Assembly (NCBI RefSeq): GCF_044324785.1
Contig: NZ_CP172127.1
DNA from: Escherichia coli
GTDB lineage: Bacteria > Pseudomonadota > Gammaproteobacteria > Enterobacterales > Enterobacteriaceae
Length of the DNA stretch: 64,000 nucleotides
Strand: one strand, 5' to 3'
Numbering within the stretch: position 1 is the stretch's first letter; every line of letters starts with the position of its first letter. Below the pieces are notes generated by a model. The model did no database searches. It had not been told where the DNA came from and was given only the letters and a program-made list of their open reading frames with translations. Both the position numbers and the translations under genes were made by a program. Shown piece by piece: positions 1 through 64,000 of this stretch.

Positions 1-953
1 AGGAAAGCCATTTCCAGACCATTAATCTGCGCCTGGCGGATTTGCTCGCGGGATAACCCAGCAGCCGGCGCGGCAACGGTATATTCGTGAATGATATCCA
101 CTCCCTGTACGCCGGGATCGTCAGTGTTAATGCTGGCACGAATGCCATGCTCAAGGAACGTTTTCAGCGGATGTGCCGCCAGCTCTGCCACGGTGCTGGT
201 CTGAATATTGGAGGTCAGACAGGATTCAATGCCAATTTGCTGCTCGGCGAGAAAATCCATCAGCGCCCGATCTTCAATGGCTTTTACGCCATGTCCAATA
301 CGTTCCGCCCCCAGTTCACGAATTGCCTGCCAGATGCTTTCCGGCCCGGCAGCTTCGCCTGCATGGACGGTAATATGCCAGCCCGCATCACGCGCGCGGT
401 TGAAGTGAGAAAGAAACAGACTTCCCGGGAAACCAAGTTCATCACCGGCTAAATCAAGTGCGGTAATCTGGTCACGGTGGGCTAAAAAGGCCTCCAGCTC
501 TTGCTGACAGGCGGCTTCACCGAAGGTCCGGCTCATAATGCCGATTAGCTTCGCCTGGACACCAAAGGTACGGCAACCTTCACATACGCCATCGATCACC
601 GCTTCGACAACACCCGCTACAGGCAGCTGATGAGCCATTGCCATGTAGCCCGGTGAAAAACGCAGCTCGACATAGTGCAGGCCGTTACGGGCTGCATCTT
701 CAATGTTTTCAAATGCTACGCGGCGGCAGGCATCAAGAGAGGCGAGAACTTTAACACCCCAGTCAAGTTTGGTCAGAAAGCTCACCAGATCGGGTTCGTT
801 GGCAATGACCTGAACGTGGGGAATCAGTGTTTCCAGGGATTGTGCAGGAAGCGAGATATTATACTGGCGGCCAAGTTCAAGAATGGTCTGGGGACGAATG
901 TTGCCATCAAGGTGGCGATGGATATCAGTTAATGGCAGGGTGGTATCAATCAT
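1..953 (-). CDS. add: adenosine deaminase, 3' end cut by window edge
   Basis: Minus-strand ATG at 953-951 opens [18 protein letters not shown]..., recognised Add N-terminus; frame stays open to position 1; expected position next to malY. Confidence 0.85.
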
Positions 954-1056
954 GGTCGCACTCTTTTTCTGGATATAAAAGTGCGCACCATTATAAAAAC
1001 AAAGCAGGGTAAAAATCCACGATTGCGCAACGATTTTTTACGTTGCGCAATTGGGG

Positions 1057-2229
1057 TTAACAAACAGCGCGGATGGCGTTAATTAATCCAGCCACACCTT
1101 TTTCCAGTTTCGAACGCGGGCACCCGGCATTGAGACGGACAAAACCACGACCTTCTTCACCGTAGGTATACCCCGGCATGATCGCGACCTTCTCTTGCTC
1201 GATAAGCGCTTTTTGCAACGCGTTGTCGTCAATATTCAACGGACGTAGATCAATCCAGGCCAGATAAGTGGATTGCGGGATCTGCCAGTTGAGTTCAGGG
1301 AACGCGGAGTTCATTTTATCTGCGATATACGTCAGGTTATCTTTCAGATAGACGCGTAAGGCATCCAGCCACGGCGCGCCTTGCTGATAGGCGGCGATAT
1401 GGGCAGTTAACGCCAGTACTGAAGGGGAAGAAAGGCCATCACGTCCTTTCAGTGCCGATAAATAGGCATCACGGCTGCTGCTATTTTCTATAATCCCGTA
1501 AGCACCGGTCAGGGCGGGAATATTGAAACTTTTCGATCCCGACGTTAGCAATGCCCAGTCTCCGCGCGCCACATTACTCCAGGGAATATGCGGCTGCTCG
1601 CCCCAAACCATATCCATATGGATTTCATCGGAAATAACCCGCACACCATGACGCTCGCACAGGTCAGCCATGATCTCCAGTTCATCGCACGTCCACACTT
1701 TCCCGGTAGGATTCTGTGGGCTACACAGGAGCATAATTTTACATTCTGGTTTCGCCAACACGGCTTCCAGCTTGCCCATATCGCAAAACCAGCCGTCAGC
1801 CCGCTTCTCTAAAGCGACGGGCATTACTGTGCGCTGGTTACCTTCAATGGCCTTGTAAAATGCGTCATAGGCGGGTGTGTGGATCACCACGCCTTCACCT
1901 TTTTCAGACCACTGACGAATCAGTTCCGAGACCATATAGATAACAGAAGGGCCATACACCACCGACTGCATATCAATTGCGGTGTAATGCTGGGTGGAAA
2001 ACCAGTGGGCAATAGCCGCGAGAAACTCATCGTTTTTCCAGCGGCTGTAGCCAAACACGCCGTGCATCAGGCGCTGATTCAGCGCCTCGATAATGCAGGG
2101 GGCAGTGGCAAAATCCATGTCTGAAATCGTGAACGGTAACAGGTCAGCAGTGCCGAAACGGTCAGCGACATAATCCCACTGCGTACACCATGTGCCATGA
2201 CGATCCACGACCTTTGAAAAATCGAACAT
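1057..2229 (-). CDS. malY: MalY, PLP-dependent C-S lyase and maltose regulon modulator
   Basis: ORF of 390 aa (MFDFSKVVDRHGTWCTQWDY...), recognised sequence, expected length, downstream of malX. Confidence 0.93.
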   Translation of the reverse strand: MFDFSKVVDRHGTWCTQWDYVADRFGTADLLPFTISDMDFATAPCIIEALNQRLMHGVFGYSRWKNDEFLAAIAHWFSTQHYTAIDMQSVVYGPSVIYMVSELIRQWSEKGEGVVIHTPAYDAFYKAIEGNQRTVMPVALEKRADGWFCDMGKLEAVLAKPECKIMLLCSPQNPTGKVWTCDELEIMADLCERHGVRVISDEIHMDMVWGEQPHIPWSNVARGDWALLTSGSKSFNIPALTGAYGIIENSSSRDAYLSALKGRDGLSSPSVLALTAHIAAYQQGAPWLDALRVYLKDNLTYIADKMNSAFPELNWQIPQSTYLAWIDLRPLNIDDNALQKALIEQEKVAIMPGYTYGEEGRGFVRLNAGCPRSKLEKGVAGLINAIRAVC

Positions 2230-2238
2230 ATCTTATCC

Positions 2239-5034
<2,796 letters not shown>

Positions 5035-49091: not shown

Positions 49092-50111
49092 ATGAAAAGC
49101 ATTTTAATTGAAAAACCGAATCAACTGGCAATTATCGAACGCGAAATACCCACCCCGTCAGCGGGTGAAGTACGAGTAAAAGTGAAACTTGCCGGAATTT
49201 GTGGTTCAGATAGCCATATTTATCGTGGGCATAATCCTTTTGCGAAATATCCGCGCGTCATTGGTCATGAATTCTTTGGCGTCATTGATGCAGTGGGTGA
49301 AGGCGTGGAAAGCGACAGAGTCGGTGAACGCGTTGCTGTCGATCCGGTGGTCAGCTGTGGGCATTGCTATCCGTGCTCTATAGGTAAGCCGAACGTTTGT
49401 ACGACACTGGCTGTATTAGGTGTGCACGCTGACGGTGGTTTCAGTGAATATGCCGTGGTGCCGGCAAAAAATGCGTGGAAAATTCCTGAAGCAGTGGCCG
49501 ATCAATATGCGGTGATGATCGAACCTTTTACCATTGCGGCTAACGTTACCGGTCATGGTCAACCGACTGAAAATGATACCGTTCTGGTTTACGGCGCAGG
49601 TCCAATCGGCCTGACGATCGTTCAGGTATTAAAAGGCGTCTATAACGTTAAGAATGTGATTGTTGCCGATCGCATTGATGAACGACTGGAAAAAGCGAAA
49701 GAGAGCGGGGCAGACTGGGCGATTAATAACAGCCAGACACCGCTTGGCGAGATTTTCGCTGAAAAAGGCATAAAGCCGACATTAATTATCGATGCGGCTT
49801 GTCATCCTTCAATCCTGAAAGAAGCCGTAACGCTGGCTTCTCCAGCGGCACGTATTGTATTGATGGGCTTCTCCAGTGAACCGTCTGAAGTGATTCAGCA
49901 AGGAATTACCGGAAAAGAACTCTCTATTTTCTCTTCACGCTTAAATGCAAATAAATTCCCGGTCGTTATCGACTGGTTAAGTAAAGGGTTAATTAAACCA
50001 GAAAAACTAATTACCCATACGTTTGATTTCCAGCATGTTGCTGATGCCATTAGTTTATTTGAACAGGATCAAAAGCATTGCTGCAAAGTCTTACTCACTT
50101 TTTCTGAATAA
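49092..50111 (+). CDS. rspB: zinc-dependent medium-chain dehydrogenase
   Basis: Start at internal Met MKSILIEKPNQLAII... giving 339 aa; Zn-binding GHE and CGHC motifs. Confidence 0.93.
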   Translation: MKSILIEKPNQLAIIEREIPTPSAGEVRVKVKLAGICGSDSHIYRGHNPFAKYPRVIGHEFFGVIDAVGEGVESDRVGERVAVDPVVSCGHCYPCSIGKPNVCTTLAVLGVHADGGFSEYAVVPAKNAWKIPEAVADQYAVMIEPFTIAANVTGHGQPTENDTVLVYGAGPIGLTIVQVLKGVYNVKNVIVADRIDERLEKAKESGADWAINNSQTPLGEIFAEKGIKPTLIIDAACHPSILKEAVTLASPAARIVLMGFSSEPSEVIQQGITGKELSIFSSRLNANKFPVVIDWLSKGLIKPEKLITHTFDFQHVADAISLFEQDQKHCCKVLLTFSE

Positions 50112-50168
50112 TACCAATAACGGCGAGTAAGTAGTACGCATCTTACCTCTTTTTTAGAGATAACCATT

Positions 50169-50297
50169 ATGACAATAGAAAAACACGAAAGAAGCACTAA
50201 GGATTTGGTGAAAGCAGCAGTATCGGGATGGCTGGGCACTGCGCTTGAATTTATGGATTTCAAGAGTCATACGTGTCAACTATTTGATAAATATTAA
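50169..50297 (+). pseudogene. ydfJ: 5' fragment of an MHS-family transporter gene interrupted by prophage insertion
   Basis: 42-codon ORF MTIEKHERSTKDLVKAAVSGWLGTALEFMDF... resembles MHS/ProP-type N-termini, then reads into unrelated sequence and stops 1 nt before the integrase gene. Confidence 0.6.
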
Positions 50298-50298
50298 A

Positions 50299-51594
50299 TT
50301 AATTTTTCATTGCTTCGTTATGGGGCATGGTTGGGGCAAACTCGCTTAACTGTGTATTTAACAAAGCTACCTGTGCATTATTGTTTTCAGACATCCATTT
50401 TCCGTATACCTGAAATACCATTTGCGCATCTGCATGGCCCATCTGGTTTGCTATAAATGCCGGATTAGCACCAGCTGTCAGCGACCAGCAGGCATAAGTA
50501 TGTCTCGACTGATATGATTTTCGATGGCGGAGTCCGGCACGTTTTATCGCTGCGTCCCACATCTGCCTTATTGAGTCAACGGTAAAATGGTCACCATAAT
50601 TTTTTACTCTCGCTGACACTTCAGGTTGAAAAACAAAGGTGCATTTATGTTTTTCTGTTCTGCCATACTCTCTGAGGTGAACATCAATGATATGCTCTTT
50701 GCTCAGTCTCGTTAATGTCATCTGACTCCGGAGAGCGTCGATTGCTGGCTTAATAAGATGAATGACCCGATTGGTTCCCGCCTGTGTTTTTGGTACCGTG
50801 AAACGGTCTTTTGCTAAATTTCTCCTGATCATCATTGTTCCATTTTTCAGATCTATGTCCTCCCATCCAAGTGCACACAGCTCACCAGGGCGAACGCCAG
50901 TATAAACAGAAACACACCATAAATTTTTGGCTTGCTGATTTCTGCACGCATCGATAAGACGGATGAATTCCTCCCGCGAAAGAGGATCCGGAATGGTTCT
51001 TGATTCCTTTAATGGCGAGATCCCCTTAAACGGGTTATCTGCCAGGTAACCGTTATCAACACCAAACTGGAACACGGCGTTAAGATTTGTCATGTAATTA
51101 TTTACAGTTACAGCCGATCTCCCTGGTTGTGTAACAATATAGTTACTTTTGGGGATCTGGTATCCAGTCAGTAGCTCTTTACGAACCTCCAGTAATTTTT
51201 CTTTATTAATCGATGAGGCAAGATTTTTTTCACCGATTATGCTCAGGATATTTTTGATGACGGCACGGTATGTGTTGAGTGATGTTTTTGCGACTTCAGT
51301 TTCTTTCAGTGCCAGAAATTTTTCAGCCAGTTCTTTTATGGTTAAATCTTGTCGAGTCTCACCAAATTTTTCCAGATTGCGTGAGGAGGGAAACTGTTTT
51401 GCATAGTCGAAAACACCAGTTTTTATTGCGTAACAAACAGAGGCGCGTAGCTCACCTGCAACGCGCCTGTTTTTTGCTGTGTCAGGAACCCCCAGGTTTT
51501 CCCTGACTCTTACGCCTTTATAAACAAACCAGATACGTAATTTCCCTCCATGGTTTTCCACGCCTGTCGGATATTTCATTTCAACTTCTCTCAT
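50299..51594 (-). CDS. int: prophage tyrosine-recombinase integrase
   Basis: ORF 431 aa with C-terminal catalytic region (…SRHTYACWSLTAGANPAFIANQMGHADAQMVFQVYGKWM); true start may be the Met 5 codons in (51579). Confidence 0.85.
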   Translation of the reverse strand: MREVEMKYPTGVENHGGKLRIWFVYKGVRVRENLGVPDTAKNRRVAGELRASVCYAIKTGVFDYAKQFPSSRNLEKFGETRQDLTIKELAEKFLALKETEVAKTSLNTYRAVIKNILSIIGEKNLASSINKEKLLEVRKELLTGYQIPKSNYIVTQPGRSAVTVNNYMTNLNAVFQFGVDNGYLADNPFKGISPLKESRTIPDPLSREEFIRLIDACRNQQAKNLWCVSVYTGVRPGELCALGWEDIDLKNGTMMIRRNLAKDRFTVPKTQAGTNRVIHLIKPAIDALRSQMTLTRLSKEHIIDVHLREYGRTEKHKCTFVFQPEVSARVKNYGDHFTVDSIRQMWDAAIKRAGLRHRKSYQSRHTYACWSLTAGANPAFIANQMGHADAQMVFQVYGKWMSENNNAQVALLNTQLSEFAPTMPHNEAMKN

Positions 51595-51613
51595 TAGTTA
51601 GTGTGGCTTTTAG

Positions 51614-51865
51614 TCAAGTAAGATGACGTCTTGGTCTTGCTGATGCCTGGCGCTCAATCCAGCGATCAATTTCTTCCAGGTTGTAAAAGCATGGACTGTT
51701 ATCCCATGGCATACCGTCATGAGCGACATGCTTATATTCCCTTCCTTCCATAAACGATTTTTCCCGGGCCTTTTTTAACGTACCTTTTTTTATTCCTTTC
51801 AGCGCAATTAACTGCTCTTCGGATACCCATTTGCCGGGAGAGACAATCATGATTACTTCGCTCAT
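51614..51865 (-). CDS. xis: putative excisionase-like small protein
   Basis: 83-aa ORF immediately upstream of and co-oriented with int; assignment by position and size. Confidence 0.55.
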   Translation of the reverse strand: MSEVIMIVSPGKWVSEEQLIALKGIKKGTLKKAREKSFMEGREYKHVAHDGMPWDNSPCFYNLEEIDRWIERQASARPRRHLT

Positions 51866-51937
51866 CGATTTCTTTATCTCTTACATCAGACGAGCGCCGG
51901 TTGCAGAATACCAGTCACAACCGGCGACAGTTGAACA

Positions 51938-54411
51938 TTAAGAATCAGCCTGACTCGGGATCAGTTTTTGCCAGATAACTGAAACGTATTTTGCCTGGTA
52001 ACGGGCGTCATCAAGTGCATTATGGCGCTCACCTTCGAATGGAATAGCCGTTCTGGCATCGAAGTCTATGGCTTTCCCCAGCTCAACGATTGTGCGTACA
52101 TCGCGATCGTTGTAGTAACGCCACGGGCAGGGGATCCCCTGCCGTTCGTATGAACGGCGCAAAATCGTGTTGTCGAAGTTGGCTCCATTTCCCCAAACCT
52201 GAACAAAAAATTCACCGGAGTTTTCGTCGATAAATTCCCGCAATTGTAACAGTGCATCATCTAACGGGATTTCATCGGTCATAATGGCCGATTGCGCTTC
52301 GCGTGATTGCTCTTAAGCCACCATTTAATGGTGTCCCGATCAATGACTCCGCCAGCAGTTTCCAGATCGATAGTCTTACTAAATTCCGGTCCCATATCTC
52401 CGGTTTGCGGATCGAAAAATATTGCACCTATTGAGATGATCGGGGCATCAGGATTTTTTCCCATGGTTTCAAGGTCGATCATTAGATGGTCACACGTCCT
52501 GCTGGTGGATGTGATTTCGTGATGACCGTTCACCTTAATTGAGTGATCTGCCGTCTCGCCAGTTTCATTATCGCTATCGTGATGCTGATTGCCGCCAGCG
52601 TTCTCCTTGTGTGGATGTTCAGCGCCTTCCATTTCCTCCGGATCATCTTCCTGAACTTCAACCTGATACTCTTCATCGAATGTTTCTTGGTATGTTGCGT
52701 CGCCCATCACCGCGCCACAATCAGGGCAGTTGCCGCCGCCGGTCTGACCGCAAGCGGTGCAGACTTTTTCCACTTCCTGTTGCGCCACTGATTCAGGCTG
52801 TTTCGTTTCTGGCTCGTTTTGTAACGCATTTGGGCTGTTTTGTTCCGCTTTTTGGTAGTTCCGTTCCGATTCATGCTGGTTCTGGTTCACAGAATCGCGG
52901 GTCTGGATCCCCTTAACCCATTTCGGATCATTCGGGTCACTAATCCCTTCAACAAATTCACCACGTGATGCAGCAAGCAACTTATCGGCGTCAGGCTGGC
53001 TGATATTGGCTGCCTGCATAATTTTGTTTACTTCGTCAGCGGTAACTTTTATCGGCTCTGGTTGTTCTGAATCTTCAGCGGTATCTACATTTTGCGGTAA
53101 GCCCGTGTATGTGCCATTTTTTCGGGCAAAATATTCTTCTTTTGTGATTTCAGTGGCGCCAGCAGCCAGTGCCTTATCCAGACCAGAAAGTTTGTTTGCG
53201 CGACCGTATTTTTCTCCGTCCTTATCTGCGAAGAGGAAATAGAACGGCCCCTCACGCTCTACAGATGGTTCAGCTTCCGGTGCGGTTTCATTTTTTGGGA
53301 TATCAGATACCTCAGTTTCCACTGCATCAGTTTGTGTTTCTGATGACTTGAGAACATCAACAGTGCCCAGGTCTGTTTCTTCATTCTCAAACACGCCCTT
53401 TGTCGTCAGGTATTCGCAGATATATTTGTTCAGTGCTACGGGATCTTTGTGAATGTCGATCGGACGCTCACGGACAAGGCCAAAAATAGTTTGGCGGTCG
53501 TAGCGAAGGGCATCAGGCTGTTTGCGTATTGATGCCGAGATACGCTTCCAGTCTTCGCGGTCGTTGTCGATAACTTCATTTTTTGCCCAGCGATGGATGC
53601 TGCCGTCAATGTTTCCGGCATCCACATCACCAGGCCAGAGAGCGTAGGCCAGTTCGTCATCCAGTGTTTTCCATGTCTGCTTGTATTCGCGATGAATGGC
53701 AGCAATGACCGGGCTGATTTTTCCTGTTGAATTTTCAGTGTACTGTTGATTGGCTCTGGCGCGGGCGAGATCAACAACAGACGTGTATTTTCCGGTTTCC
53801 TTGCGTTCACCTTCGCGACGTTTTTTCCAGATGCGCATCTCTGCCTGAATTTCGGGCCATTTAGCACCAGGAATACATTTATGCTTAACCCACCCAATGG
53901 CGTGCAACTTAAGCTCCGGATACATGGCGTTAACTTCTGGCATTTTCATCAACGCTTCAACGATATGTCCGTTGAATGTTGCCATGTCTTCCTGCAACAA
54001 TTCCTGTGCGCTAATAACCATATCAACGGTGATGTTTTCACATGTGTCGAACTTAACCATGACAGCGTTCTGTACTTCAGGGGCCAGCTTGTCAAAAGTG
54101 ACGTTCATCGGATCGGATTCAGTCTCAACCGGGACAAAAGAAGCAGACTCCTCATCCCAGCGGTTTTCCTGCATATATTCAGCATCCCATGAATCGAGGG
54201 CAGGGCGGGGTATACCAGGTTTATCCTCGCAGACAATAAATTTATAAGCGCAGTCCTGAGCAGCCGGATAATGTTCCAGGAATTGCCAGTGAAATTTTGC
54301 TCGAGCACGGCGTTCGTCGCCAGCTTCAATGGCTGTGGCTACAGCCACAGCGCCTTCTTCCCTTGTTGCCAGTTCGTCAGGAATAGCGGCGCAAATAAAG
54401 ACTTTACTCAT
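51938..54411 (-). pseudogene. RecE-family (exodeoxyribonuclease VIII-like) gene with C-terminal DEDDh exonuclease domain, split by a frameshift
   Basis: ORFs 52279..54411 (710 aa) and 51938..52282 (114 aa) overlap by ATGA; Exo I motif (HLMIDLETMG) is in the upstream ORF, Exo II/III (FGNGANFDNT, HNALDDARYQAKY) in the downstream ORF; frames differ by 2 nt around 52310-52311. Confidence 0.75.
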
Positions 54412-54534
54412 TTTGTTTTAACCTCATGACAGATTTAAGGATGAACAAATCCCTGCCATTGCTGGCATATAAGAATGAAACCGGATATTTATTACGGAAC
54501 TGTTTTAAAGACCTGCCGGGATTTCGATATTATC

Positions 54535-54696
54535 CTAGTGAATAACTTTATCGACCGGGTAACAGTTACCGGGAATTTTCTGTTCGGTTGCTGCAGTCAT
54601 ACACTCCTGCATTGTCCTGTGAACACTGACTGCAATATCAACTGGCACTCCGGAAACAAGAAAAACTGTCAGAACAAGCGCAAATGCTGAATTCAT
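54535..54696 (-). CDS. ydfD: small membrane protein, YdfD-like (prophage lysis protein family)
   Basis: 53-aa product MNSAFALVLTVFLVSGVPVDIAVSVHRTMQECM...; ATG overlaps dicB stop (ATGA); assignment by position and partial recall. Confidence 0.6.
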   Translation of the reverse strand: MNSAFALVLTVFLVSGVPVDIAVSVHRTMQECMTAATEQKIPGNCYPVDKVIH

Positions 54697-54881
54697 TGTG
54701 CACATCCTTTTGGCATCAGACGTAAACGAGCCAGCATTGAAACAATGCATATTTTATTTAATAGCTCCCGTTCTTGTTTTCTCTTGTTAATGGCATCTTC
54801 AGTAAATACAGGGTTACTGATAGTGACACCAATTTCAAAACAACCTTCAGACGTATTAACGTTTGGTAATAACGTTTTCAT
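54693..54881 (-). CDS. dicB: cell division inhibitor DicB
   Basis: 62-aa product MKTLLPNVNTSEGCFEIGVTISNPVFTEDAINKRKQERELLNKICIVSMLARLRLMPKGCAQ, recognised DicB. Confidence 0.9.
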   Translation of the reverse strand: MKTLLPNVNTSEGCFEIGVTISNPVFTEDAINKRKQERELLNKICIVSMLARLRLMPKGCAQ

Positions 54882-55055
54882 TATCGCGCCCTCAACAATG
54901 AGTTTTGTGATGCGGTGCCTGGTGCCTCCAGGTGACGTTAACCAGTTAACAATTAACGCCGGATACAGAGAATCCACCCATAACACTGTTTTTGGTTTTA
55001 ACTGTTCCGCGTGCGCTCAGCCGCATTCACCACATCACAAAATTCACTTTAAAAA

Positions 55056-55108
55056 GGGCGGCAGAGCAGTCACGGAGTAAAACTGATACCGCCAAACGTC
55101 ACCAGAAA
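55056..55108 (-). ncRNA. dicF: DicF small regulatory RNA
   Basis: Minus strand reads TTTCTGGTGACGTTTGGCGGTATCAGTTTTACTCCGTGACTGCTCTGCCGCCC followed by TTTTT; recognised DicF with 3' GC hairpin. Confidence 0.88.
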
Positions 55109-55448
55109 ATTGATAACAGAGGGCGTTGCAGCGGGGTTGTCACTTAAGCGTATGGTCAACCTGACAACCCGGTGTCCTCAACGGGGAAGGAATAACCCCG
55201 CCATACTTACCGCCGCGCCATTTCGCGGGTTGCCACAACCGGAAGCGCACGGTCGACGAAAATTTAACGACAGGCTATCTATGAACCAGCTACCTCGCCG
55301 TGCGCTTTCGCGTTATGGTCTGACTTTTCAGGGAAATATCCTTTCAGTAAACTGTCAGTGCCGGATGCTCACCCGTGTCCGGCGCACGCACTCCACCTCA
55401 CCCGTGGAGAACTCCTTAATTACCAACCTTAGCTTCGTTGGTTAGCTA

Positions 55449-55667
55449 TTAACGCGGGTATGTAATCATTCTGGCAATGCTTAATGCCGCTGCTTTTTCC
55501 AGATTGGTGATATCCTGCTCCAGAGAGAACAGATTTTCAGCCTGCTTAGCCCTGGCTTCATTAGCCCATTTCAGATCCTGCGCTGCATTAATTTTCTGGT
55601 GCATCCACTCATAAAGTTCATCATCGGTATAGTCTGGCGCGATGATAACGGGTTCTCGTTTCTGCAT
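55449..55667 (-). CDS. ydfC: prophage small protein, YdfC-like
   Basis: 72-aa ORF between ydfB and dicF; assigned by size and position in the dicB operon. Confidence 0.6.
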   Translation of the reverse strand: MQKREPVIIAPDYTDDELYEWMHQKINAAQDLKWANEARAKQAENLFSLEQDITNLEKAAALSIARMITYPR

Positions 55668-55697
55668 ACTGATTCCTTGCGGTGCTGTTTCGCTTAT

Positions 55698-55826
55698 CAG
55701 CCGTTAGATTTTGCCGAACTGGAAAGCGCCTGTTTAAATTCGCTGAAGCTGAGAGCTTCTTCGCCTTCGGCAAGGCCTTCGAAGTATTCTTCGTAAGCCT
55801 TTTCCATGATTGTGTCGAAATCCATA
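55698..55826 (-). CDS. ydfB: prophage small protein YdfB
   Basis: Not in ORF track (42 aa): MDFDTIMEKAYEEYFEGLAEGEEALSFSEFKQALSSSAKSNG; starts right after ydfA stop. Confidence 0.7.
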
Positions 55827-55982
55827 TCACCCACCTGAATTTCTTTCCAGCCAGCGACGCGCTCCAGATTCGGTTTTAAACGTTTTGCTTTTGGTATACG
55901 TCATTGCGGTGAACGTGCCGTCCTGGTTTGGAAACACGCCGTACACCAGAGATTCGTTGTTGCCAAGATCGATAGTATCCAT
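55827..55982 (-). CDS. ydfA: prophage small protein YdfA (DUF1391)
   Basis: Start at internal Met MDTIDLGNNESLVYGVFPNQDGTFTAMTYTK... giving 51 aa; first gene after dicA. Confidence 0.75.
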   Translation of the reverse strand: MDTIDLGNNESLVYGVFPNQDGTFTAMTYTKSKTFKTESGARRWLERNSGG

Positions 55983-56095
55983 GCTGACCTCATTTCCCCT
56001 TAACGCCGGGGTAGCGGAACTGTTTGCTGAGAACACCGTGCGGTGTCTTGATGGAAAATAATTTAGAATAACCTAACATGAGAGGCAAGTGTTTT

Positions 56096-56113
56096 TGTTA
56101 GATTGATCTAACA
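56096..56113. promoter_or_regulatory. Operator-like palindrome TGTTAG-N6-CTAACA in the dicB-operon promoter region
   Basis: TGTTAGATTGATCTAACA with flanking T5/A5, between dicA stop and ydfA start. Confidence 0.6.
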
Positions 56114-56149
56114 AAAAGGGTGGGCGCAACTAATCACTTGAAAAGAATG

Positions 56150-56557
56150 TTATTTTATTGATTTATTTTTACGCGCTTTAAGCATTTCTTCGAAGAGTTT
56201 GTTGAAGTTTTCTACTCTTGCGCGCATTTCAGACAGCAAGGCTTCCTGCTCGGAAGATGGAAGAGCATCGAATAATTCGATCAATTCTTTGTGGTTGGGA
56301 GTTAGCTCTGTTTCCACATGAAGTTCTTGTGCAGGCACTGGTGCCTTGTCTTCGTCACCAAACATTAGCCATGTAGGTGAGCACTTCAGAGCATCCGCTA
56401 AAGCAAACAATCGTTTTCCGACTGGCTGGGTTTCGTCTCTTTCCCATTGTGAAATTGTGACGTGAGCAACTCCAGCGAGGCGCGCGGCTTCTCGTTGTGT
56501 TAAGCGTAATTCTTTTCGTCGCGCCAGAACTCGCTGGCCCAGGGTTCTTGTATCCAT
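56150..56557 (-). CDS. dicA: HTH-XRE repressor, DicA-like (cI-type)
   Basis: 135-aa ORF with N-terminal HTH (LRLTQREAARLAGVAHVTISQWERD); same length and architecture as DicA but diverged from the K-12 sequence as I recall it. Confidence 0.8.
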   Translation of the reverse strand: MDTRTLGQRVLARRKELRLTQREAARLAGVAHVTISQWERDETQPVGKRLFALADALKCSPTWLMFGDEDKAPVPAQELHVETELTPNHKELIELFDALPSSEQEALLSEMRARVENFNKLFEEMLKARKNKSIK

Positions 56558-56579
56558 AGTTAGGTAATTCTAATTTTTC

Positions 56580-56624
56580 TTGACTTAGGTATCCCGCGCA
56601 CAATAATGTTAGAAAAGTCTAACA
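56580..56624 (+). promoter_or_regulatory. Putative dicC promoter (-35 TTGACT, 16-17 bp, -10 AATAAT) overlapped by operator TGTTAG-N6-CTAACA
   Basis: Hexamers and the palindrome TGTTAGAAAAGTCTAACA at 56607-56624 read directly; a weaker third site GTTAG-N6-CTAAT at 56559-56576 overlaps dicA start. Confidence 0.55.
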
Positions 56625-56634
56625 AGAGGGGGAT

Positions 56635-56865
56635 TTGATGCTTAAAGTTGACGCAATTACTTTTTTTGGCAGCAAAACAAAGCTTGCCAATGCCGCAGGA
56701 GTGAGGCTGGCAAGTGTTGCTGCTTGGGGGATACTGGTTCCTGAAGGTCGCGCGATGCGTCTACAGGAGGCATCTGGCGGGGAGCTTCAGTATGATCCCA
56801 AAGTTTATGATGAATATCGTAAGACGAAGCGGGCGGGGCGGTTGAACAATGAAAATCACTCCTGA
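56635..56865 (+). CDS. dicC: Cro-like regulator DicC
   Basis: 76-aa ORF divergent from dicA (MMLKVDAITFFGSKTKLANAAGVRLASVAAWG...). Confidence 0.75.
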   Translation: MMLKVDAITFFGSKTKLANAAGVRLASVAAWGILVPEGRAMRLQEASGGELQYDPKVYDEYRKTKRAGRLNNENHS

Positions 56866-57370
56866 ACAGGCTCGTGAGGCTCTGGATGCCTGGATATGTC
56901 GACCAGGAATGACACAGGAGCAGGCGACGATATTAATCACTGAAGCATTCTGGGCTTTGAAAGAGCGCCCGAACATCGATGTTCAGCGTGTCACAGATGA
57001 AGGTGGCGCGGTTGATCAGCGAGCGCTTGGTGTTAATCGAGTGAAGATATTCGAACGCTGGAAGGCTATCGACACCAGGGATAAGCGTGAAAAGTTCACG
57101 GCGCTAGTGCCTGCGATTATGGAGGCTATCCGGATTAGTGATTTCAGGTTGTATCGTGAAATTACTGACGGAAAAAGCATCACGTGCATGATCGCCGGGT
57201 TAAACAAAGAATATGGCGATGTGGTGGAGTCCGGACTGCTTTTTGCTGATCCTGCCGTAGTGGATCGTGAAACTGACGAACTTATAGAAAAAGCAATTGC
57301 TTTCAAGCTTGCGTATCGACAGCAATACCAACAAAAAGCTGGATGGAATTATGAGCCTTCTTTTTGCTGA
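56849..57370 (+). CDS. hypothetical prophage protein at the cII-equivalent position (possibly YdaT-like)
   Basis: 173-aa ORF whose ATG overlaps the dicC 3' end; no recognisable motifs. Confidence 0.5.
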   Translation: MKITPEQAREALDAWICRPGMTQEQATILITEAFWALKERPNIDVQRVTDEGGAVDQRALGVNRVKIFERWKAIDTRDKREKFTALVPAIMEAIRISDFRLYREITDGKSITCMIAGLNKEYGDVVESGLLFADPAVVDRETDELIEKAIAFKLAYRQQYQQKAGWNYEPSFC

Positions 57371-58316
57371 ACGCCCACTGGTTATAAACACGCAGCTGGC
57401 AATGAAAATTGGCTTAAACGAAGCCATTGTTTTGCAACAACTGCACTACTGGTTGAGAGATACCAACTCCGGCATGGAATGTGATGGTGTTCGCTGGATT
57501 TATAACACAACGGAACAATGGCTGGAACAGTTCCCATTCTGGTCAGAGTCAACGTTAAAGCGCGCGTTTGCAAGTCTGAAAACGCTGGGGCTTTTGCGTT
57601 GTGAAAAGCTCAATAAATCAAAGCGCGATATGACCAATTTCTACACGATCAACTATGGGAGCGAGCTTTTAGATGGTGGCAAATTGAGCGAATCCATCGG
57701 TTCAAAATGCGCCGCTCCATCAGGTCAAAATGACACGATGGAAGAGGTCAAAATGAAACGCTCCATTGATTCAAAACGACCCAATGTCATCGGGTCAAAA
57801 TGGCCTGATGATCTTACAGAGAATACAACAGAGATTACTACAGAGAATAAAAACACTTTTCGTCCGGAAGCTTCGCAACCGGACCCGCAGACGACTGAAC
57901 AGGATTTTTTAACCCGGAACTCCGACGCGGTTGTGTTTAGTGCGAAAAAACGCCAGTGGGGTAGCAGGGAGGATTTGGCGTGTGCGCAGTGGATCTGGGG
58001 GCGGATCGTGGGTCTCTACGAACAGGCAGCCAGTGATGATGGCGAGATCATGCGACCAAAAGAGCCTAACTGGACTGCCTGGGCCAATGACGTGCGCACA
58101 ATGCGGATGCTGGATGGCAGAAGCCACAGACAAATTTGCGAAATGTTTGGTCGGGTTCAGCGAGATCCATTCTGGGTAAAAAACATCATGAGCCCGTCAA
58201 AGCTCCGCGAAAAATGGGACGAACTGGTCATCCGCCTGGGACGTTCACCTGTACAGCGTTGTGTTAATCATATTTCTGAACCGGATACAGAAATTCCGCC
58301 TGGTTTCAGAGGATAA
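57351..58316 (+). CDS. phage replication initiation / replisome organizer protein (lambda O-like) containing the origin iterons
   Basis: ORF track frame 57297..58316; likely start at MSLLFAERPLVINTQLAMKIGLNEAIVLQQLHYWL...; iterons and AT-rich tract lie inside the coding sequence. Confidence 0.7.
   Translation: MSLLFAERPLVINTQLAMKIGLNEAIVLQQLHYWLRDTNSGMECDGVRWIYNTTEQWLEQFPFWSESTLKRAFASLKTLGLLRCEKLNKSKRDMTNFYTINYGSELLDGGKLSESIGSKCAAPSGQNDTMEEVKMKRSIDSKRPNVIGSKWPDDLTENTTEITTENKNTFRPEASQPDPQTTEQDFLTRNSDAVVFSAKKRQWGSREDLACAQWIWGRIVGLYEQAASDDGEIMRPKEPNWTAWANDVRTMRMLDGRSHRQICEMFGRVQRDPFWVKNIMSPSKLREKWDELVIRLGRSPVQRCVNHISEPDTEIPPGFRG
57699..57802 (+). repeat. Replication origin iterons: five direct repeats of GGT(T)CAAAATG at 22-25 bp spacing, followed by AT-rich tract 57810-57855
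   Basis: Repeats at 57699, 57723, 57746, 57768 and 57793, then ACAGAGAATACAACAGAGATTACTACAGAGAATAAAAACACTTTT. Confidence 0.7.
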
Positions 58317-58356
58317 GTGTTGATTTCAGGTCATGAGGTAATTTTAAGGGGGACTT

Positions 58357-58779
58357 GTGGCAAAAGTTTTTACACAAGAAGAGCGGGAAAAAATTAAATG
58401 GCAGGTGGTGGAACTCGTGCGCCAGAGCGGCCGTGAGACGTTACGGCAACTGGAAGCTAAAACAGGTGCGACTAGATATCTGATGAGCGTTCTTGCCAGA
58501 GAGCTGGTAGCCAGTGGCGATGTATACAACTCCGGCTACGGGTTATTCCCCTCTGAACAGGCGCGTAAGGACTGGCAAAACGCCCGCAAAAAACTCTCGA
58601 GGGCAAAGGTGAAGAAACCTGCTGTGGTTGATCCGGACCTTATCTGGTCATCACCTGACGGAGAAATACGTCGCTACGACAGTCGCCTAAACATAATCTG
58701 TCGCGAGTGCCGGAAGAGCGAAGTTATGCAGCGCATACTGGCTTTCTATCAGGGTAATTTTCAGGACGTGGCGCAGTGA
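58357..58779 (+). CDS. hypothetical prophage protein
   Basis: 140-aa ORF, basic, Cys pair CRECRK near C-terminus; no family recognised. Confidence 0.5.
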   Translation: MAKVFTQEEREKIKWQVVELVRQSGRETLRQLEAKTGATRYLMSVLARELVASGDVYNSGYGLFPSEQARKDWQNARKKLSRAKVKKPAVVDPDLIWSSPDGEIRRYDSRLNIICRECRKSEVMQRILAFYQGNFQDVAQ

Positions 58780-59222
58780 GTGCACCGGCAACCATTCTTG
58801 ATATGTGCTGTGGCAGCCGCATGTTCTGGTTCGATAAGTCTGACGAACGGGCGATATTTAGCGATATCAGAAAAGAAGGATACACATTACGCAATGGGAG
58901 ACGCTTGATTATCAGCCCTGACATTATCGCAGATTTTCGTGCATTATCATTTGCAGACGCATCTTTTTCGATGGTTGTATTAGACCCTCCGCATCTTGAG
59001 CGTGTTGGTGATAACGCCTGGATGGGAAAGAAATATGGACGGCTGAATAAAGATGCCTGGCGTGATGATTTGCGACAGAGATTTAAAGAAGCTTTTCGGG
59101 TGTTGAGGCCGCACGGCGTTCTGATTTTTTAATGGAATGAAACGCAAATACCGGTAAGCCAGATTCTGGCACTGACAGATAGAAAGCCTGTTATCTGTCA
59201 ACGAACAGGGAAAAAACGATAA
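58776..59222 (+). pseudogene. putative SAM-dependent DNA methyltransferase interrupted by an in-frame TAA
   Basis: Motifs ILDMCCGSR and VVLDPPH; TAA at 59130-59132 after ...VLIF, then 29 more in-frame codons (WNETQIPVSQILALTDRKPVICQRTGKKR) before a second stop. Confidence 0.5.
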
Positions 59223-59394
59223 AACCCACTGGATTATTTTTATGAAAGAGGCATCCAGTGAGTAGATTCGTAAGGTTACAGATACGTATATCTGAATAAT
59301 TAAATTCAGTTCTGTAAATAAAACTTAATCCTTAACCGGATGGATTTCTGCACCCTCAGAACATCAGGAGGCCGCCCGAAAGGGCGGTAGTGAA

Positions 59395-60030
59395 ATGCGA
59401 AAGTTCAAAATTATTATTGAAACGGGAATAGCTGGTGGAGATTTTGAGGATGTATTCGAAGTGGACGATGACGCAACACCTGATGAAATTCATGACGGAG
59501 CATAAGAAATTTTCTTTAACTACTGCAATTACTCATACCACGAAATAAAAGACGATGAGGAAGAACAAAGTGGCTGATTTTTGTTCAGCTAAATATAACA
59601 TCAGTTTTGAAGAGCGGGATGAACTATTAATGGACTATGGTGAGTTACGCGGTGGAAGTGCTGCTGATGTCGAATCCTAGCGTGATGACTATGAAGCGGG
59701 AAAAACTCCGGTCGAAGCATATTGTGAGGAGTGGGGCGATGAATGAGCGAGATTAATTATCAGGAAGGGCATGAAACGGCGGGGCAAGCAAAACCAGTGA
59801 CATGGCGATATCGCTACGTGAAAAAAGGCGTTACGGACTTTCAGGGGAAGTAGTGGTCTGGTGACTGGAAATATGTACCGAAAAAAGAGGATTGTAACGA
59901 CAGGCCGAACTATCAAATTCAGGCCTTATTCACTGCCTCACCAGTCCCGGTTACATCAGAAGAATTGGTTAAAGCTGTGCACTTTTATGAACAACTAAAA
60001 CGCGAAAATCCACCAACATCCGGCAACTAG
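59395..60030 (+). pseudogene. cluster of short ORF fragments in shifting frames, likely decayed prophage gene(s)
   Basis: Successive 15-60 codon ORFs separated by stops and frame changes (MRKFKIIIETG..., MRKNKVADFCSAKYNISF..., MSEINYQEGHETAG..., ...KYVPKKEDCNDRPNYQIQALF...). Confidence 0.4.
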
Positions 60031-60284
60031 ATTAATGGGTTAACTATGTCGGTTAAACGACCAGCCAACTGAAAAAGCGGAAACCTGATTACAGGTTGCC
60101 AGATAAGGCAATGAGCTACCTGGCGCGGAACGGACTGATAAGTATGGGGAATGTTTTACGATGAACCTTTAGACTAAAGAGTTTGTAACGCTATGTAAGT
60201 GATTTTTTCTGGTTTAGATATTTATATGTCCGGCCAAATTGAGGTGTGTTTAAATGTAATTGCACATTGATTGTAGGAGGAATA

Positions 60285-60464
60285 ATGAAAAACGCATTGC
60301 AGTTTTTGTTTGTTGCGTTCTGGTTGTTCGCATCATGTATGCCCATCATCTTCACAGCAAGGTATATGGAAAAAGTTGATGTTTTGATATTAATATTTGG
60401 ATATATAAATGCCCTTTTTTTAGGGGTGTTCATGGCGGTCATGTGCATTGAATACTGGCGGTAA
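60285..60464 (+). CDS. unrecognised 59-aa two-helix membrane protein
   Basis: ATG preceded by consensus AGGAGG at 60275-60280 (4-nt spacer); product MKNALQFLFVAFWLFASCMPIIFTARYMEKVDVLILIFGYINALFLGVFMAVMCIEYWR; AT-rich context. Confidence 0.55.
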   Translation: MKNALQFLFVAFWLFASCMPIIFTARYMEKVDVLILIFGYINALFLGVFMAVMCIEYWR

Positions 60465-60798
60465 ATACAGCGAACTCCATTGGTTTAGTTGGATATTTAC
60501 TGTGCTGGACAAAAACGGTTTGCGGGGAAATCTTAGTTAAGTAGAATGACTGCGGGTGCTTGAGGCTATCTGCCTCGGGCACGAACACCAACGGCAGGTA
60601 GAGAAAAGCCCCAGTTAACATTACGCGTCCTGCAAGACGCTTAACATTAATCTGAGGCCAATTTCATGCCAGACACATGTAGGTTAGCCTCTTACGTGCC
60701 GAAAGGCAAGGAGAAGCAGGCTATTGTTAACACCAAGCTGTAATGTCCCCTTTGAACCATTCTAAAATGTCCCCAGACAATTCTCTGGGGGATTTTTC

Positions 60799-61764
60799 AT
60801 GACCAAAGAAACTGTTACGATGAGTCATAAGGAACTCCACCGACTTCAGATTATTCAGGAGTCAATTAATCGACATATTACTCAGGAACAAGCTGCGGCA
60901 CGCATTGGCATTTCTATTCGGCAGGTTAAACGTCTGGTGCAACGGTATAGAAATGAAGGGCCTTCTGGTCTGGTTTCCCACCGACGTGGAAAGCGTCCTA
61001 ATAATTCCTTTTCTACTGAATTCAGAGCAACAGTAATTTTACTCCTCAAAGGCCGTTACGCTGATTTTGGACCTACGTTTGCGTGCGAAAAATTGCGCGA
61101 GATACACGGTTTATCTTTATCCGTTGAAACTCTCAGAAAGTGGATGATAGAAGAGGGGGGTATGGCGTGAACGCCGTCGTAAAATTGCCCGTATATATCA
61201 ACGCCGCATGCGACGACCATCTTACGGTGAACTGATCCAGATTGATGGCTCACCTCATGACTGGTTTGAAAATCGAGGCCCCAGATGTACACTGATCGTT
61301 TTCATTGATGATGCCACCAGTGCGTTGATGGCGTTGCGTTTTGTGCCTGCTGAAACAACCCGGGCTTACATGGAAACCCTCCGGGGTTACCTTAATGATC
61401 ATGGCGTACCGCTCGCTCTCTACTCTGATAGACACAGTATATTCAGGGTAAATAACCCAGAGCGGGAAGGTGAGCTGACCCAGTTCACTCGTGCGATAAA
61501 GACACTGGGCATCGAGCCAATCCATGCCAACAGCCCGCAGGCAAAAGGGCGGGTAGAGCGCGCCAATCAGACACTACAGGACAGGCTGGTCAAAGAAATG
61601 CGGCTTCAGAATATCAGTGATATTGAAACAGCAAATGCATGGTTGCCGACCTTTATTGAAGCCTATAACAACCGGTTCGCTACGTCGCCTCGTACTACTG
61701 ATAATGCTCATCTTGATGTGCACCATTCTGAAGAGGAACTGGGTTATATCTTCAGCCTACAGGC
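60799..61764 (+). pseudogene. IS481/ISNCY-like DDE transposase gene (HTH plus rve core), frameshifted at a G6 run and interrupted by IS903
   Basis: ORF 60799..61170 (HTH) and frame-shifted ORF opening at 61151 (…IQIDGSPHDWFENRG…RVERANQTLQDRL); frames would fuse if the G6 run at 61155-61160 were G5; coding sequence broken at 61764. Confidence 0.7.
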
Positions 61765-62821
61765 GGCTTTGTTGAATAAATCAGATTTCGGGTAAGTCTC
61801 CCCCGTAGCGGGTTGTGTTTTCAGGCAATACGCACGCTTTCAGGCATACCTGCTTTCGTCATTTTGTTCAGCGCTCGTACCAGGGCCATAGCCTCCGCAA
61901 CCTGACCATCGTAGTCACGCAGCGTCAGTGAACCCCCGAACAGCTGTTTTACCCGGTACATCGCCGTTTCCGCTATCGAGCGACGGTTGTAATCTGTTGT
62001 CCATTTCCACCGCGCATTACTCCCGGTCATTCGCTGATTAGCCACTGCACGGTTACGGTCTGCATATTCACCGGGCCAGTAACCCGCACCTTTTCGGGGA
62101 GGGATAAGCGCGCTGATTTTCTTACGCCGCAGTTCATCGTGACATAGCCGGGTATCGTAAGCGCCATCGGCGGCGGCTGACCTGATTTTCCGGTGGGTTT
62201 GCCGGATTAACCCGGGGAAGGCCTCTGAGTCCGTAACGTTGTTCAGCGACAGGTCAGCGCAGATGATTTCATGTGTTTTACTGTCAACGGCGAGATGCAG
62301 CTTACGCCAGATACGGCGGCGTTCCTGGCCATGCTTTTTGACTTTCCACTCGCCTTCACCGAAGACCTTCAGCCCGGTGGAATCAATTACCAGGTGTGCG
62401 ATTTCACCCCGGGTGGGCGTTTTGAAACTGACATTAACCGACTTTGCCCGCCTGCTGACACAGCTGTAATCCGGGCAGCGTAGCGGAACGTTCATCAGAG
62501 AAAAAATGGAATCAATAAAGCCCTGCGCAGCCCGCAGGGTCAGCCTGAATACGCGTTTAATGACCAGCACAGTAGTGATGGCAAGGTCAGAATAGCGCTG
62601 AGGTCTGCCTCGTGAAGAAGGTGTTGCTGACTCATACCAGGCCTGAATAGCTTCATCATCCAGCCAGAAAGTTATGGAGCCACGGTTGATGAGGGCTTTA
62701 TTGTAGGTGGGCCAGTTGGTGATTTTGAACTTTTGCTTTGCCACGGAACGGTCTGCGTTGTCGGGAAGATACGTGATCTGATCCTTCAACTCAGCAAAAG
62801 TTCGATTTATTCAACAAAGCC
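61765..62821 (-). mobile_element. IS903-type insertion sequence (1057 bp) with 9-bp target site duplication CCTACAGGC
   Basis: Terminal inverted repeats GGCTTTGTTGAATAAATC at both ends; identical 9-bp direct repeats at 61756-61764 and 62822-62830. Confidence 0.9.
61821..62789 (-). CDS. IS903 transposase (IS5 family)
   Basis: ORF 322 aa (…AKQKFKITNWPTYNKALINRGSITFWLDDEAIQAWYESATPSSRGRPQRYSDLAITTVLV…), recognised IS903/IS102 transposase; true start may be a few codons in. Confidence 0.88.
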   Translation of the reverse strand: MKDQITYLPDNADRSVAKQKFKITNWPTYNKALINRGSITFWLDDEAIQAWYESATPSSRGRPQRYSDLAITTVLVIKRVFRLTLRAAQGFIDSIFSLMNVPLRCPDYSCVSRRAKSVNVSFKTPTRGEIAHLVIDSTGLKVFGEGEWKVKKHGQERRRIWRKLHLAVDSKTHEIICADLSLNNVTDSEAFPGLIRQTHRKIRSAAADGAYDTRLCHDELRRKKISALIPPRKGAGYWPGEYADRNRAVANQRMTGSNARWKWTTDYNRRSIAETAMYRVKQLFGGSLTLRDYDGQVAEAMALVRALNKMTKAGMPESVRIA

Positions 62822-62830
62822 CCTACAGGC

Positions 62831-63206
62831 GAAGCGCGTTCTGTCTAAAAATCTCACTTTCCAGTACAAAAGCAGTGCGTTTCAGGTACGCAGTGAGGGC
62901 CGGGGATATCGACTTAGGCATTCGGTTGTTACTGTATGCGAGAACTTTGACGGTGAAATTAACGTTCTGTATGACGGGAAAGCGCTGGGCTGGGAAAAGT
63001 ATGTTGATGGCCCGGAGCCTATACCACTGGATGATGAAAAGAGTGTCCATGAACGAGTGGATAATGCCCGTATTGATTTACGCTCAAAATACTATGTTAA
63101 ACCTAAAGCTGACCATCCCTGGCTTACGCGCCGAACGCAAAGTCATCAGCAAGTTAAGCCCCCGAAGTTACCTAAAAAGAAGCCTGATCCCGATAAAAAA
63201 GATTGA
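62831..63206 (+). pseudogene. 3' part of the IS481/ISNCY-like transposase gene displaced by the IS903 insertion
   Basis: After removing IS903 and one TSD copy the reading frame continues from 61764 into 62831 (…SLQ|AKRVLSKNLTFQYK…) to a stop at 63204-63206. Confidence 0.7.
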
Positions 63207-63601
63207 AACCAAGATCGATTCGGTTGAGTGCATATCCATTCATAGGGTAGATTCTTAAGTCGCGTTTCTGGTGTTCATTTTCGGGTGGTTTGTTACTTGT
63301 TTTACCGGGGATATGCCAGAAACGCGCTGAGTCAGTCTGGGCGGTGCGCGTAATGAGGCGTTATGGTAAATAGCCTATGCTAATGTCCGCTAAGAGCAAG
63401 AAGCGGAAGTTGGCAGTTTTGTGGACTGTCCCCACAAATGTGACTACAGAAATAGTTGCAATTCATAATTGATCATGGGTTGTCAGTTAAACTCGTGGCG
63501 ATTTAAATAGACTAATTGGGAGTGCGTCCATTACTTATATCTTGTAATGTTAACTATCAGAAATGATACAAAGATAATATGTCTTTAAAGAAAAGGCTGA
63601 T

Positions 63602-63628
63602 GGCGAAAAGTGGCCCGATGAGGGCCAC
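63602..63628 (-). terminator. Rho-independent terminator after flxA
   Basis: GTGGCCC-tcatc-GGGCCAC hairpin followed by TTTTCGCC on the minus strand. Confidence 0.7.
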
Positions 63629-63642
63629 AATACGGCTGTCAC

Positions 63643-63975
63643 TTAGACGTAAATATCAATGGTGCCAGCGGTATTTGTATCGTCTTTTTTCTCTTCTTTT
63701 TTATCAGGCTGAACTGTCGCGTCTTTATTCTTTTTCTCTGCCTGCTGCCTTAACAACTGCTCCAGTTGAGCCCTGAGGCTTTCAATTTGCTTCTGTACCA
63801 ATGCAGCCATTTCTTTTTTCTGCTGTGTCGTCATCCCCTCTTCCGATGAGATTTTCCCAAGCTTTTCAGTCAGCACCTGAATTTGTCTTGTGATTTTGGC
63901 TATTTCTGATGTTCCTTCCGGGGCGGAGTTGTTTGAAATAACGGTTGAGGTATTTCCCTGAATTGTGACAGACAT
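63643..63975 (-). CDS. flxA: Qin prophage protein FlxA
   Basis: ORF 110 aa (MSVTIQGNTSTVISNNSAPEGTSEIAKITRQIQVLTEKLGKISSEEG…), recognised FlxA. Confidence 0.88.
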   Translation of the reverse strand: MSVTIQGNTSTVISNNSAPEGTSEIAKITRQIQVLTEKLGKISSEEGMTTQQKKEMAALVQKQIESLRAQLEQLLRQQAEKKNKDATVQPDKKEEKKDDTNTAGTIDIYV

Positions 63976-64000
63976 AGATTTCTCCTTTTAAAAAAGCACT

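Follow-up and report, generated by a model that had tools for sequence, protein, structure and literature searches.

The stretch of Escherichia coli DNA analysed here (64,000 nt of contig NZ_CP172127.1, RefSeq assembly GCF_044324785.1; hereafter the window) carries, at positions 51,938 to 54,411, two overlapping open reading frames (ORFs) on the minus strand that hold the parts of a single exonuclease domain. A first-pass annotation, made from the sequence alone, described them as a RecE-family exonuclease gene split by a 2-nt frameshift and lacking a recT-like partner. The locus raises the questions of whether this is one broken gene or a working gene in two parts, to which family the nuclease belongs, and whether the missing annealase gene is an anomaly. 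The reading that we favour, and consider probable, is that the locus holds a full-length ydfE gene of a Qin-type prophage, put out of frame by duplication of the dinucleotide AG after codon 700.

One exonuclease gene interrupted by two bases

The features on which this reading depends are as follows.

52279..54411, minus strand: ORF1, 710 amino acids (aa); residues 1-700 of the 823-aa exonuclease followed by 10 out-of-frame residues (SNHAKRNRPL) and a TGA stop
51938..52282, minus strand: ORF2, 114 aa; corresponds to intact residues 710-823, with D37 of Exo II equal to D746 and H87/D92 of Exo III equal to H796/D801
52310..52313, minus strand: AG tandem duplication (AGAG on the gene strand) after codon K700, within the conserved WW..QS helix between Exo I and Exo II
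52279..52282, minus strand: ATGA overlap of the ORF2 start codon and the ORF1 stop codon
51971..52488, minus strand: DEDDh 3'-5' exonuclease domain (PF16473, Rv2179c-like, relative of T4 DexA); intact residues 642-813, interrupted by the frameshift

The overlapping ORFs of 710 and 114 aa exist as first described, with the four nucleotides ATGA in common, and one Pfam family runs through both of them. Positions 2-69 of the PF16473 profile (Rv2179c-like 3'-5' exoribonuclease domain) matched ORF1 residues 642-706 (E 1.5e-22, 80.6 bits), and positions 77-177 matched ORF2 residues 4-104 (E 1.9e-36, 125.8 bits), which excludes a chance match. The Exo I motif IDLET is encoded by ORF1, while the Exo II motif NFDNT and the Exo III motif HNALDDARY are encoded by ORF2. 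The lesion was located by alignment to the intact allele L001:6001-8472 (WP_021511903, 823 aa): over 2,472 nt the only difference is an extra AG in the window, which changes TTAAG on the gene strand to TTAAGAG. Together, the divided Pfam match and the alignment confirm that a single gene is cut by a 2-nt frameshift through its DEDDh domain. The first-pass annotation had named the right dinucleotide, which it placed at 52310-52311; the insertion can equally well be placed at 52312-52313. It had also counted 11 open codons in the downstream frame ahead of the ATG, where there are actually 10.

The ORF1 product ends in ...WWLK-SNHAKRNRPL and ORF2 begins at M710 of the intact protein, leaving residues 701-709 (QSREAQSAI), a part of the conserved WW..QS..A helix between Exo I and Exo II, encoded by neither ORF. 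Catalytic residues D646 and E648 are on ORF1, and D746, H796 and D801 are on ORF2. As Exo I is thereby separated from Exo II and Exo III and nine residues of the helix are lost, the D-E-D-D/H set is no longer carried by one polypeptide, as it is in the intact allele. The nuclease activity of the window allele has therefore most likely been lost, judging from the distribution of the motifs.

The two bases would have arisen as a tandem duplication of the replication-slippage type (TTAAG to TTAAGAG), an origin suggested by the form of the repeat. The frame would then shift after codon 700 to give a 710-aa product made up of an N-terminal scaffold, a RecE-like segment, a four-Cys motif and the Exo I third of the nuclease, and a 114-aa remnant ORF with Exo II and Exo III would be left behind.

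Had intact homologues also stopped at this position, a single gene would have been hard to maintain; the 120 best-scoring relatives do not stop there. Those listed from the protein search were 811-831 aa long, except one 818-aa sequence named 'partial'. The homologue search with the whole protein returned near-identical E. coli proteins only, and its contribution is the length norm.

The interrupted gene is ydfE of a Qin-type prophage

The gene order around the locus is rspA-rspB / int / xis / exonuclease / ydfD / dicB / ydfC ydfB ydfA / dicA-like repressor, followed by further Qin genes. The locus is the left end of a Qin-type lambdoid cryptic prophage, next to rspB, and the neighbours closest to the exonuclease gene are listed below.

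50299..51594, minus strand: tyrosine integrase gene, at the prophage end adjoining rspB
51614..51865, minus strand: excisionase gene (DUF1233), directly downstream of the exonuclease gene
54535..54696, minus strand: ydfD, lysis protein, upstream in the same operon; Q54* (C to T at 54537), 53 aa versus 63
54693..54881, minus strand: dicB, cell-division inhibitor, upstream in the operon; annotated product of 62 aa, computed from a 97-aa ORF at 54693..54986

The split gene is the full-length counterpart of ydfE (b1577) of E. coli K-12. Orthology follows from synteny, as the K-12 gene occupies the same position (dicB-ydfD-ydfE...intQ-rspB, with dicF annotated between ydfC and dicB), and from the DNA identity of 96.6% at which the K-12 Qin region aligns to window positions 53645-56230. 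In K-12, ydfE is an annotated pseudogene that IS2E overlaps and after which comes the pseudogene intQ; beyond about 255 codons it no longer resembles the window gene. The window, in contrast, has the whole gene, broken only by the 2-nt duplication near codon 700. Membership of the YdfE family is indicated also by YdfE_N (PF27430) and YdfE_C (PF27432), both of which are listed, as precomputed hits from newer Pfam releases, on the exact 710-aa window product.

The complete genome of Escherichia phage Tritos contains the same operon: cI, ydfABC-like genes, DicF, dicB, ydfD, a 2,472-nt exonuclease gene, xis and int, with no annealase gene annotated in it. Between intact alleles that are 8-10% apart, the ratio of nonsynonymous to synonymous substitution rates (dN/dS) was 0.20-0.26, which shows that purifying selection acts on them; the gene is therefore functional and protein-coding in the phage lineage. 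A functional study of a YdfE-type protein was not found in the literature on ydfE and on Rv2179c.

When the L025 and L026 alleles were compared with that of L001, nearly all differences fell in codons 1-630, and the nuclease codons 631-823 contained only 7-15 of them. This contrast suggests a recombination breakpoint, or a sweep that recently affected the 3' part.

The nuclease domain is a DEDDh domain related to T4 DexA

The intact allele scored 226 bits against PF16473, for which the Pfam gathering threshold is 27, and D646, E648, D746, H796 and D801 were invariant in an alignment of nine diverse homologues. The closest solved structure by sequence was that of T4 DexA (8KEL/8KEN; E 5e-8). 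T4 DexA (exonuclease A) showed 28% identity to the YdfE-type nuclease in a tblastn match, and its D7/E9, D119, H186 and D191 align with the YdfE-type catalytic residues. The two differ in that the YdfE-type nuclease is without the DexA-specific loops, does not conserve equivalents of W152 and D169, and is fused behind a scaffold of ~640 residues, whereas DexA is a stand-alone protein of 227 aa. These matches predict that the intact 823-aa protein acts as a DEDDh-class 3'-5' exonuclease of the Rv2179c/T4 DexA family and depends on Mg.

The duplication of Exo I that the first-pass annotation had noticed within 30 residues proved not to be one. Both strings are real (HLMIDLETMG with D646 and KTIDLETAGG with D682), with their Asp residues 36 apart. 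At the second site the nine-homologue alignment has TIDLETA, AVSLESA, EVSLESS, NVDMQSP, DVDLHSA, NISVLSS, NVDLQSC and KFDLKSQ; the consensus is V-D-L-x-S (V-D/S-L-x-S over eight diverse homologues), and neither Asp nor Glu is conserved. HMMER placed the second IDLET against FDLKS of DexA. An internal duplication of Exo I was ruled out by the family alignment and this placement, and the second IDLET is a family-typical stretch that resembles Exo I by chance in this lineage and is not a catalytic motif.

Stand-alone members of the same domain family are found in lambdoid and P22-like phages. The 3'-5' exonucleases gp30 of mEp235 and gene 34 of epsilon34 belong to the recombination module of the PL operon just upstream of xis-int, in the order Erf-SSB-Exo-Abc2. 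In mEp235 the protein has 182 aa and Erf-SSB-Exo-Abc2 is followed by xis-int. These proteins of ~180 aa have no scaffold and adjoin an annealase, whereas the Qin/Tritos type has 823 aa and no annealase in its operon. The biological role of the intact YdfE-type protein would accordingly lie in a phage module for recombination and DNA-end processing.

The likeness to DexA (E 5e-8) allows another role for the intact protein, that of an anti-phage defence nuclease of the DexA-like 'HREX' type, which degrades the 5-hydroxymethylcytosine (5hmC) DNA of T-even phages, rather than one in recombination. A 2025 paper reported that EcD, a DexA homologue of E. coli, protects cells from T4 by breaking down 5hmC DNA (PMC12153337). 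The residues proposed for 5hmC recognition are not conserved in the YdfE-type nuclease, in which Tyr stands in place of DexA W152 and the D169 loop is absent, with some uncertainty in the alignment around D169. The equivalent of D90, a tetramerisation residue lost in EcD, is retained as Asp; PADLOC gives no matching model; and the gene occupies the recombination-module position of a lambdoid operon. We consider a defence role improbable on this evidence, and assignment to a known defence system was rejected, given the missing PADLOC match and the unconserved HREX signature residues.

The insertion is rare and very probably real

The 2,474-nt interval was compared by megablast with 5,426 complete E. 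coli genomes. The gene was present in 4,799 (median, two copies each; 10,639 copies in total), and the best matches were single 2,472-nt coding sequences annotated "exonuclease"; no complete RefSeq E. coli genome proved identical. The insertion itself was absent from all 5,597 places found in 3,485 complete genomes with a 101-nt probe centred on it (none better than 98.0%), and an exact 31-mer spanning it was matched nowhere among the GTDB representative genomes. At least 1,000 contigs carry the intact 823-aa sequence, and only two on record the exact 710-aa product, both from Logan assemblies of Sequence Read Archive (SRA) runs. One of these, the fetched contig of SRR31073010, is 100% identical to window positions 49279-57411 (8.1 kb), the divergent chromosomal flank included.

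An allele that is essentially unique (absent from the 3,485 complete genomes) and accompanied by no substitution is also what a sequencing or assembly error would look like, in which case the gene would be intact in the real organism. The identical 710-aa product was assembled independently from two SRA runs, once in a contig without a mismatch over 8.1 kb, the sequence context is not a homopolymer, and the rest of the window shows no coding indels relative to two relatives. An error therefore seems a poor explanation. Comparison with strain ETEC6335 gave three indel events in 32.7 kb, of which the two besides AG were both intergenic; comparison with strain WAT over the prophage part (~12.6 kb) gave seven single-nucleotide polymorphisms, the AG insertion, one intergenic T-run indel and an insertion sequence (IS). 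With so few indels in either comparison the assembly is not indel-prone, and the idea of an indel-ridden assembly was rejected. Since the same broken allele is present in contigs from two public sequencing runs, we regard it as highly probable that the insertion is a real and very recent mutation. "Recent pseudogene", one of the two readings offered by the first-pass annotation, is the best one, with zero substitutions relative to the intact allele and no second occurrence among the 5,597 complete-genome copies.

Relation to RecE and the absence of recT

RecE (exodeoxyribonuclease VIII) of the Rac prophage is encoded at the equivalent place of the early-left operon, just upstream of xis-int, and BLASTP showed that it shares with the YdfE-type protein a central segment that includes a CxxC-x8-CxxC motif and an acidic linker.

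52537..53628, minus strand: central region, residues 262-625, homologous to RecE 278-591 at 40% identity, with far higher similarity in the last ~150 residues
52714..52761, minus strand: four-Cys motif CTACGQTGGGNCPDCG, CxxC-x8-CxxC, a putative zinc ribbon; residues 551-566

The four clustered Cys noted earlier in the N-terminal product are indeed present at residues 551-566. The motif is conserved in K-12 RecE as CNACGQTGGDNCPDCG and is absent from some relatives, e.g. P0166 and P0185. Beyond the central segment the likeness ends. A Pfam scan of the intact allele at E <= 1 gave only PF16473 and a weak match to PF00929; neither the PD-(D/E)XK domain PF12684 nor the N-terminal Exonuc_VIII domain PF06630 was detected, both of which were found in the K-12 RecE control. 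Against the NCBIfam RecE equivalog NF007259 the protein scored 282 bits, with a cutoff of 1,269, and matched profile positions 271-602 only. RecE thus combines PF06630 with PF12684, while the YdfE-type protein has neither and a catalytic fold of the DEDDh type. DEDDh nucleases work in the 3'-5' direction, and RecE works in the 5'-3' direction. Pfam, NCBIfam and BLASTP together rule out a true RecE family member, and the name "RecE-family exonuclease" given in the first-pass annotation has to be withdrawn; only residues 262-625 align. The YdfE-type gene is often mislabelled exodeoxyribonuclease VIII, including in phage records.

The RecE nuclease domain has been assigned to residues 564-866, the function of the N-terminal part of RecE being unknown (PMC11611040). 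Most of the shared segment lies in this N-terminal part, with an overlap into the start of the nuclease domain.

In K-12 Rac, recT follows recE, whereas the YdfE-type protein has no RecT partner. The Pfam scan of 16 ORFs in the prophage part of the window turned up no RecT, Bet or Erf domain, and the annotations of near-identical prophages in three other strains list no such gene. The absence of a recT-like gene was thus correctly reported, but it is no anomaly, because the catalytic domain is DEDDh and not RecE-type, and because Tritos has an intact gene in the same operon without an annealase.

A scaffold with different C-terminal domains

An exhaustive search of 1.84 billion representative proteins with the N-terminal 630 residues brought up no more than 243 relatives at E <= 1e-3, a good number of which were fragments; the family is narrow. 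Its members nevertheless differ in their ends. P0172 and P0185 have the PF06630 N-terminus of RecE and a DEDDh C-terminus, and P0175 has a YdfE-type N-terminus and a PD-(D/E)XK domain. About ten other long relatives (P0173, P0178, P0214 and more) end in a C-terminal domain of ~280 residues without a Pfam match; the gene of P0173 lies between a weak Gam match and xis-int. Among P0172, P0185, P0175 and P0166, all combinations of a RecE- or YdfE-type N-terminus with a DEDDh or PD-(D/E)XK C-terminus occur in representative proteins; RecE and the YdfE-type proteins are therefore mosaics with a common central segment. A fourth type of C-terminal domain (ending ...QQLTIAALHGLCANPAH...; phrog_26058) is found on the same scaffold in P0170, P0299 and P0310.

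In relatives, the N-terminal scaffold is joined either to a nuclease of the RecE type, a PD-(D/E)XK 5'-3' exonuclease, or to an annealase with a Rad52 fold. Together with the DEDDh 3'-5' exonuclease and at least one further domain, this makes four types of effector seen on it. Architecture and position suggest that the scaffold may carry interchangeable effector domains and that the protein family would belong to the lambdoid recombination and end-processing module. A bolder extension is that the N-terminal and central scaffold of YdfE and RecE is a common lambdoid recombination adaptor with interchangeable C-terminal effectors, that Qin and Tritos represent an annealase-less version of RecET/Red for 3'-5' end processing, that the RecE N-terminus is a targeting part, and that the window allele residually encodes a working scaffold protein. 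We put this forward tentatively, as an idea that is unlikely to hold as a whole.

Decay of the gene and of the prophage

At least seven other independent lesions of the ydfE-type gene are present in other strains. They include 1-nt deletions at nt 2023 (L007) and nt 586 (L025), an annotated 4-bp deletion in LC567818, nonsense codons at 381 and 697 in other alleles, and upstream truncations or rearrangements, one of them flanked by IS66 transposase genes. As the lesions are spread along the gene, they look like neutral decay. The operon of the window carries a second truncating mutation, ydfD Q54* (stop codon at 54535-54537), 130 bp upstream of the exonuclease gene. This ydfD allele occurs in 10 of the 3,563 matching complete E. 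coli genome records, including that of strain WAT, in which the exonuclease gene is intact. In K-12, DicA represses the upstream genes of the ydfE operon (PMC11430063); selection on the operon would for that reason stay weak in a lysogen.

Other genes of the prophage have decayed as well, at window positions 58776-59132 and at homologous loci in L001, L002 and L029. In sister strains, RefSeq annotates frameshifts in an S-adenosylmethionine-dependent methyltransferase gene and in the gene of a hypothetical protein, and an internal stop in a DUF7167 gene. These further decayed genes are consistent with a cryptic, degrading element.

Two additional observations concern the prophage as a whole. 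Window positions 61766-62821 contain a 1,057-bp insertion that is absent from ETEC6335 and WAT, encodes a 322-aa DDE transposase (PF13737 and PF01609), is presumably IS903-like from its size, and lies within what remains of an ISEsa1 transposase gene of the prophage. The prophage part (50300-64000) is ~99.9% identical to the prophages of WAT, ETEC6335 and 07-4299, whereas the flanking chromosome (14000-50300) is 1.1-1.5% divergent from WAT and ETEC6335. A near-identical prophage beside a divergent flank suggests recent horizontal spread of the Qin-type element between lineages, or its recombinational replacement.

The decay could also be seen as selection for a shorter protein: the 710-aa product may be retained as a nuclease-dead scaffold and the frameshift may be adaptive, for example because carrying the nuclease is costly. 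In favour of this reading, the N-terminal modules are undamaged and a good fold is predicted for them, the gene has been inactivated repeatedly and in varied ways in other strains, and the adjoining ydfD is truncated too. The lesions elsewhere, however, fall throughout the gene and not in the nuclease domain alone (nt 586, codon 381, nt 1395 and IS2E in K-12), which fits neutral decay better, each of the fetched relatives that run past the scaffold bears some C-terminal effector domain, and the allele is too young for any selection test. Retention as a scaffold is therefore quite improbable. The last alternative, a functional split in which a programmed -1 (or +2) shift, or termination-reinitiation at ATGA and reassembly of the 114-aa with the 710-aa piece, restores the enzyme, has the overlap of the ORF2 ATG with the ORF1 stop and the strong Pfam match kept by both fragments in its favour, but it is hardly credible when neither a slippery heptamer X XXY YYZ in the overlap zone nor a Shine-Dalgarno-like sequence upstream of the ORF2 ATG was found, the two-ORF arrangement is private to one lineage whose listed close relatives are single polypeptides of 811-831 aa, and nine conserved-helix residues are in neither ORF. 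Programmed frameshifting and phase variation were likewise rejected as candidates, there being no slippery heptamer, an (AG)2 repeat too short for phase variation and no such allele in the 5,597 copies.

Several points weigh against a frameshifted ydfE with a dead nuclease as the full account. Loss of activity is deduced from the sequence, and some reinitiation at the ATGA overlap could still yield the 114-aa piece. For the N-terminal 470 residues no informative fold match was obtained, and the PADLOC models gave no match. The two Logan runs perhaps come from the same isolate as the window; a shared artefact would then be formally possible, which is unlikely for a dinucleotide outside a homopolymer.

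What the locus means

The frameshifted ydfE is a case of ordinary cryptic-prophage decay and no new kind of gene arrangement. Both ORFs should be annotated as one pseudogene and not as exodeoxyribonuclease VIII or RecE, and the lack of recT is to be expected. Thousands of E. coli genomes have this gene intact and others have it broken in various ways; the window adds one more private inactivating mutation. The mosaic scaffold family, which lies outside the window, may be of interest for recombineering and for the unexplained N-terminal region of RecE.

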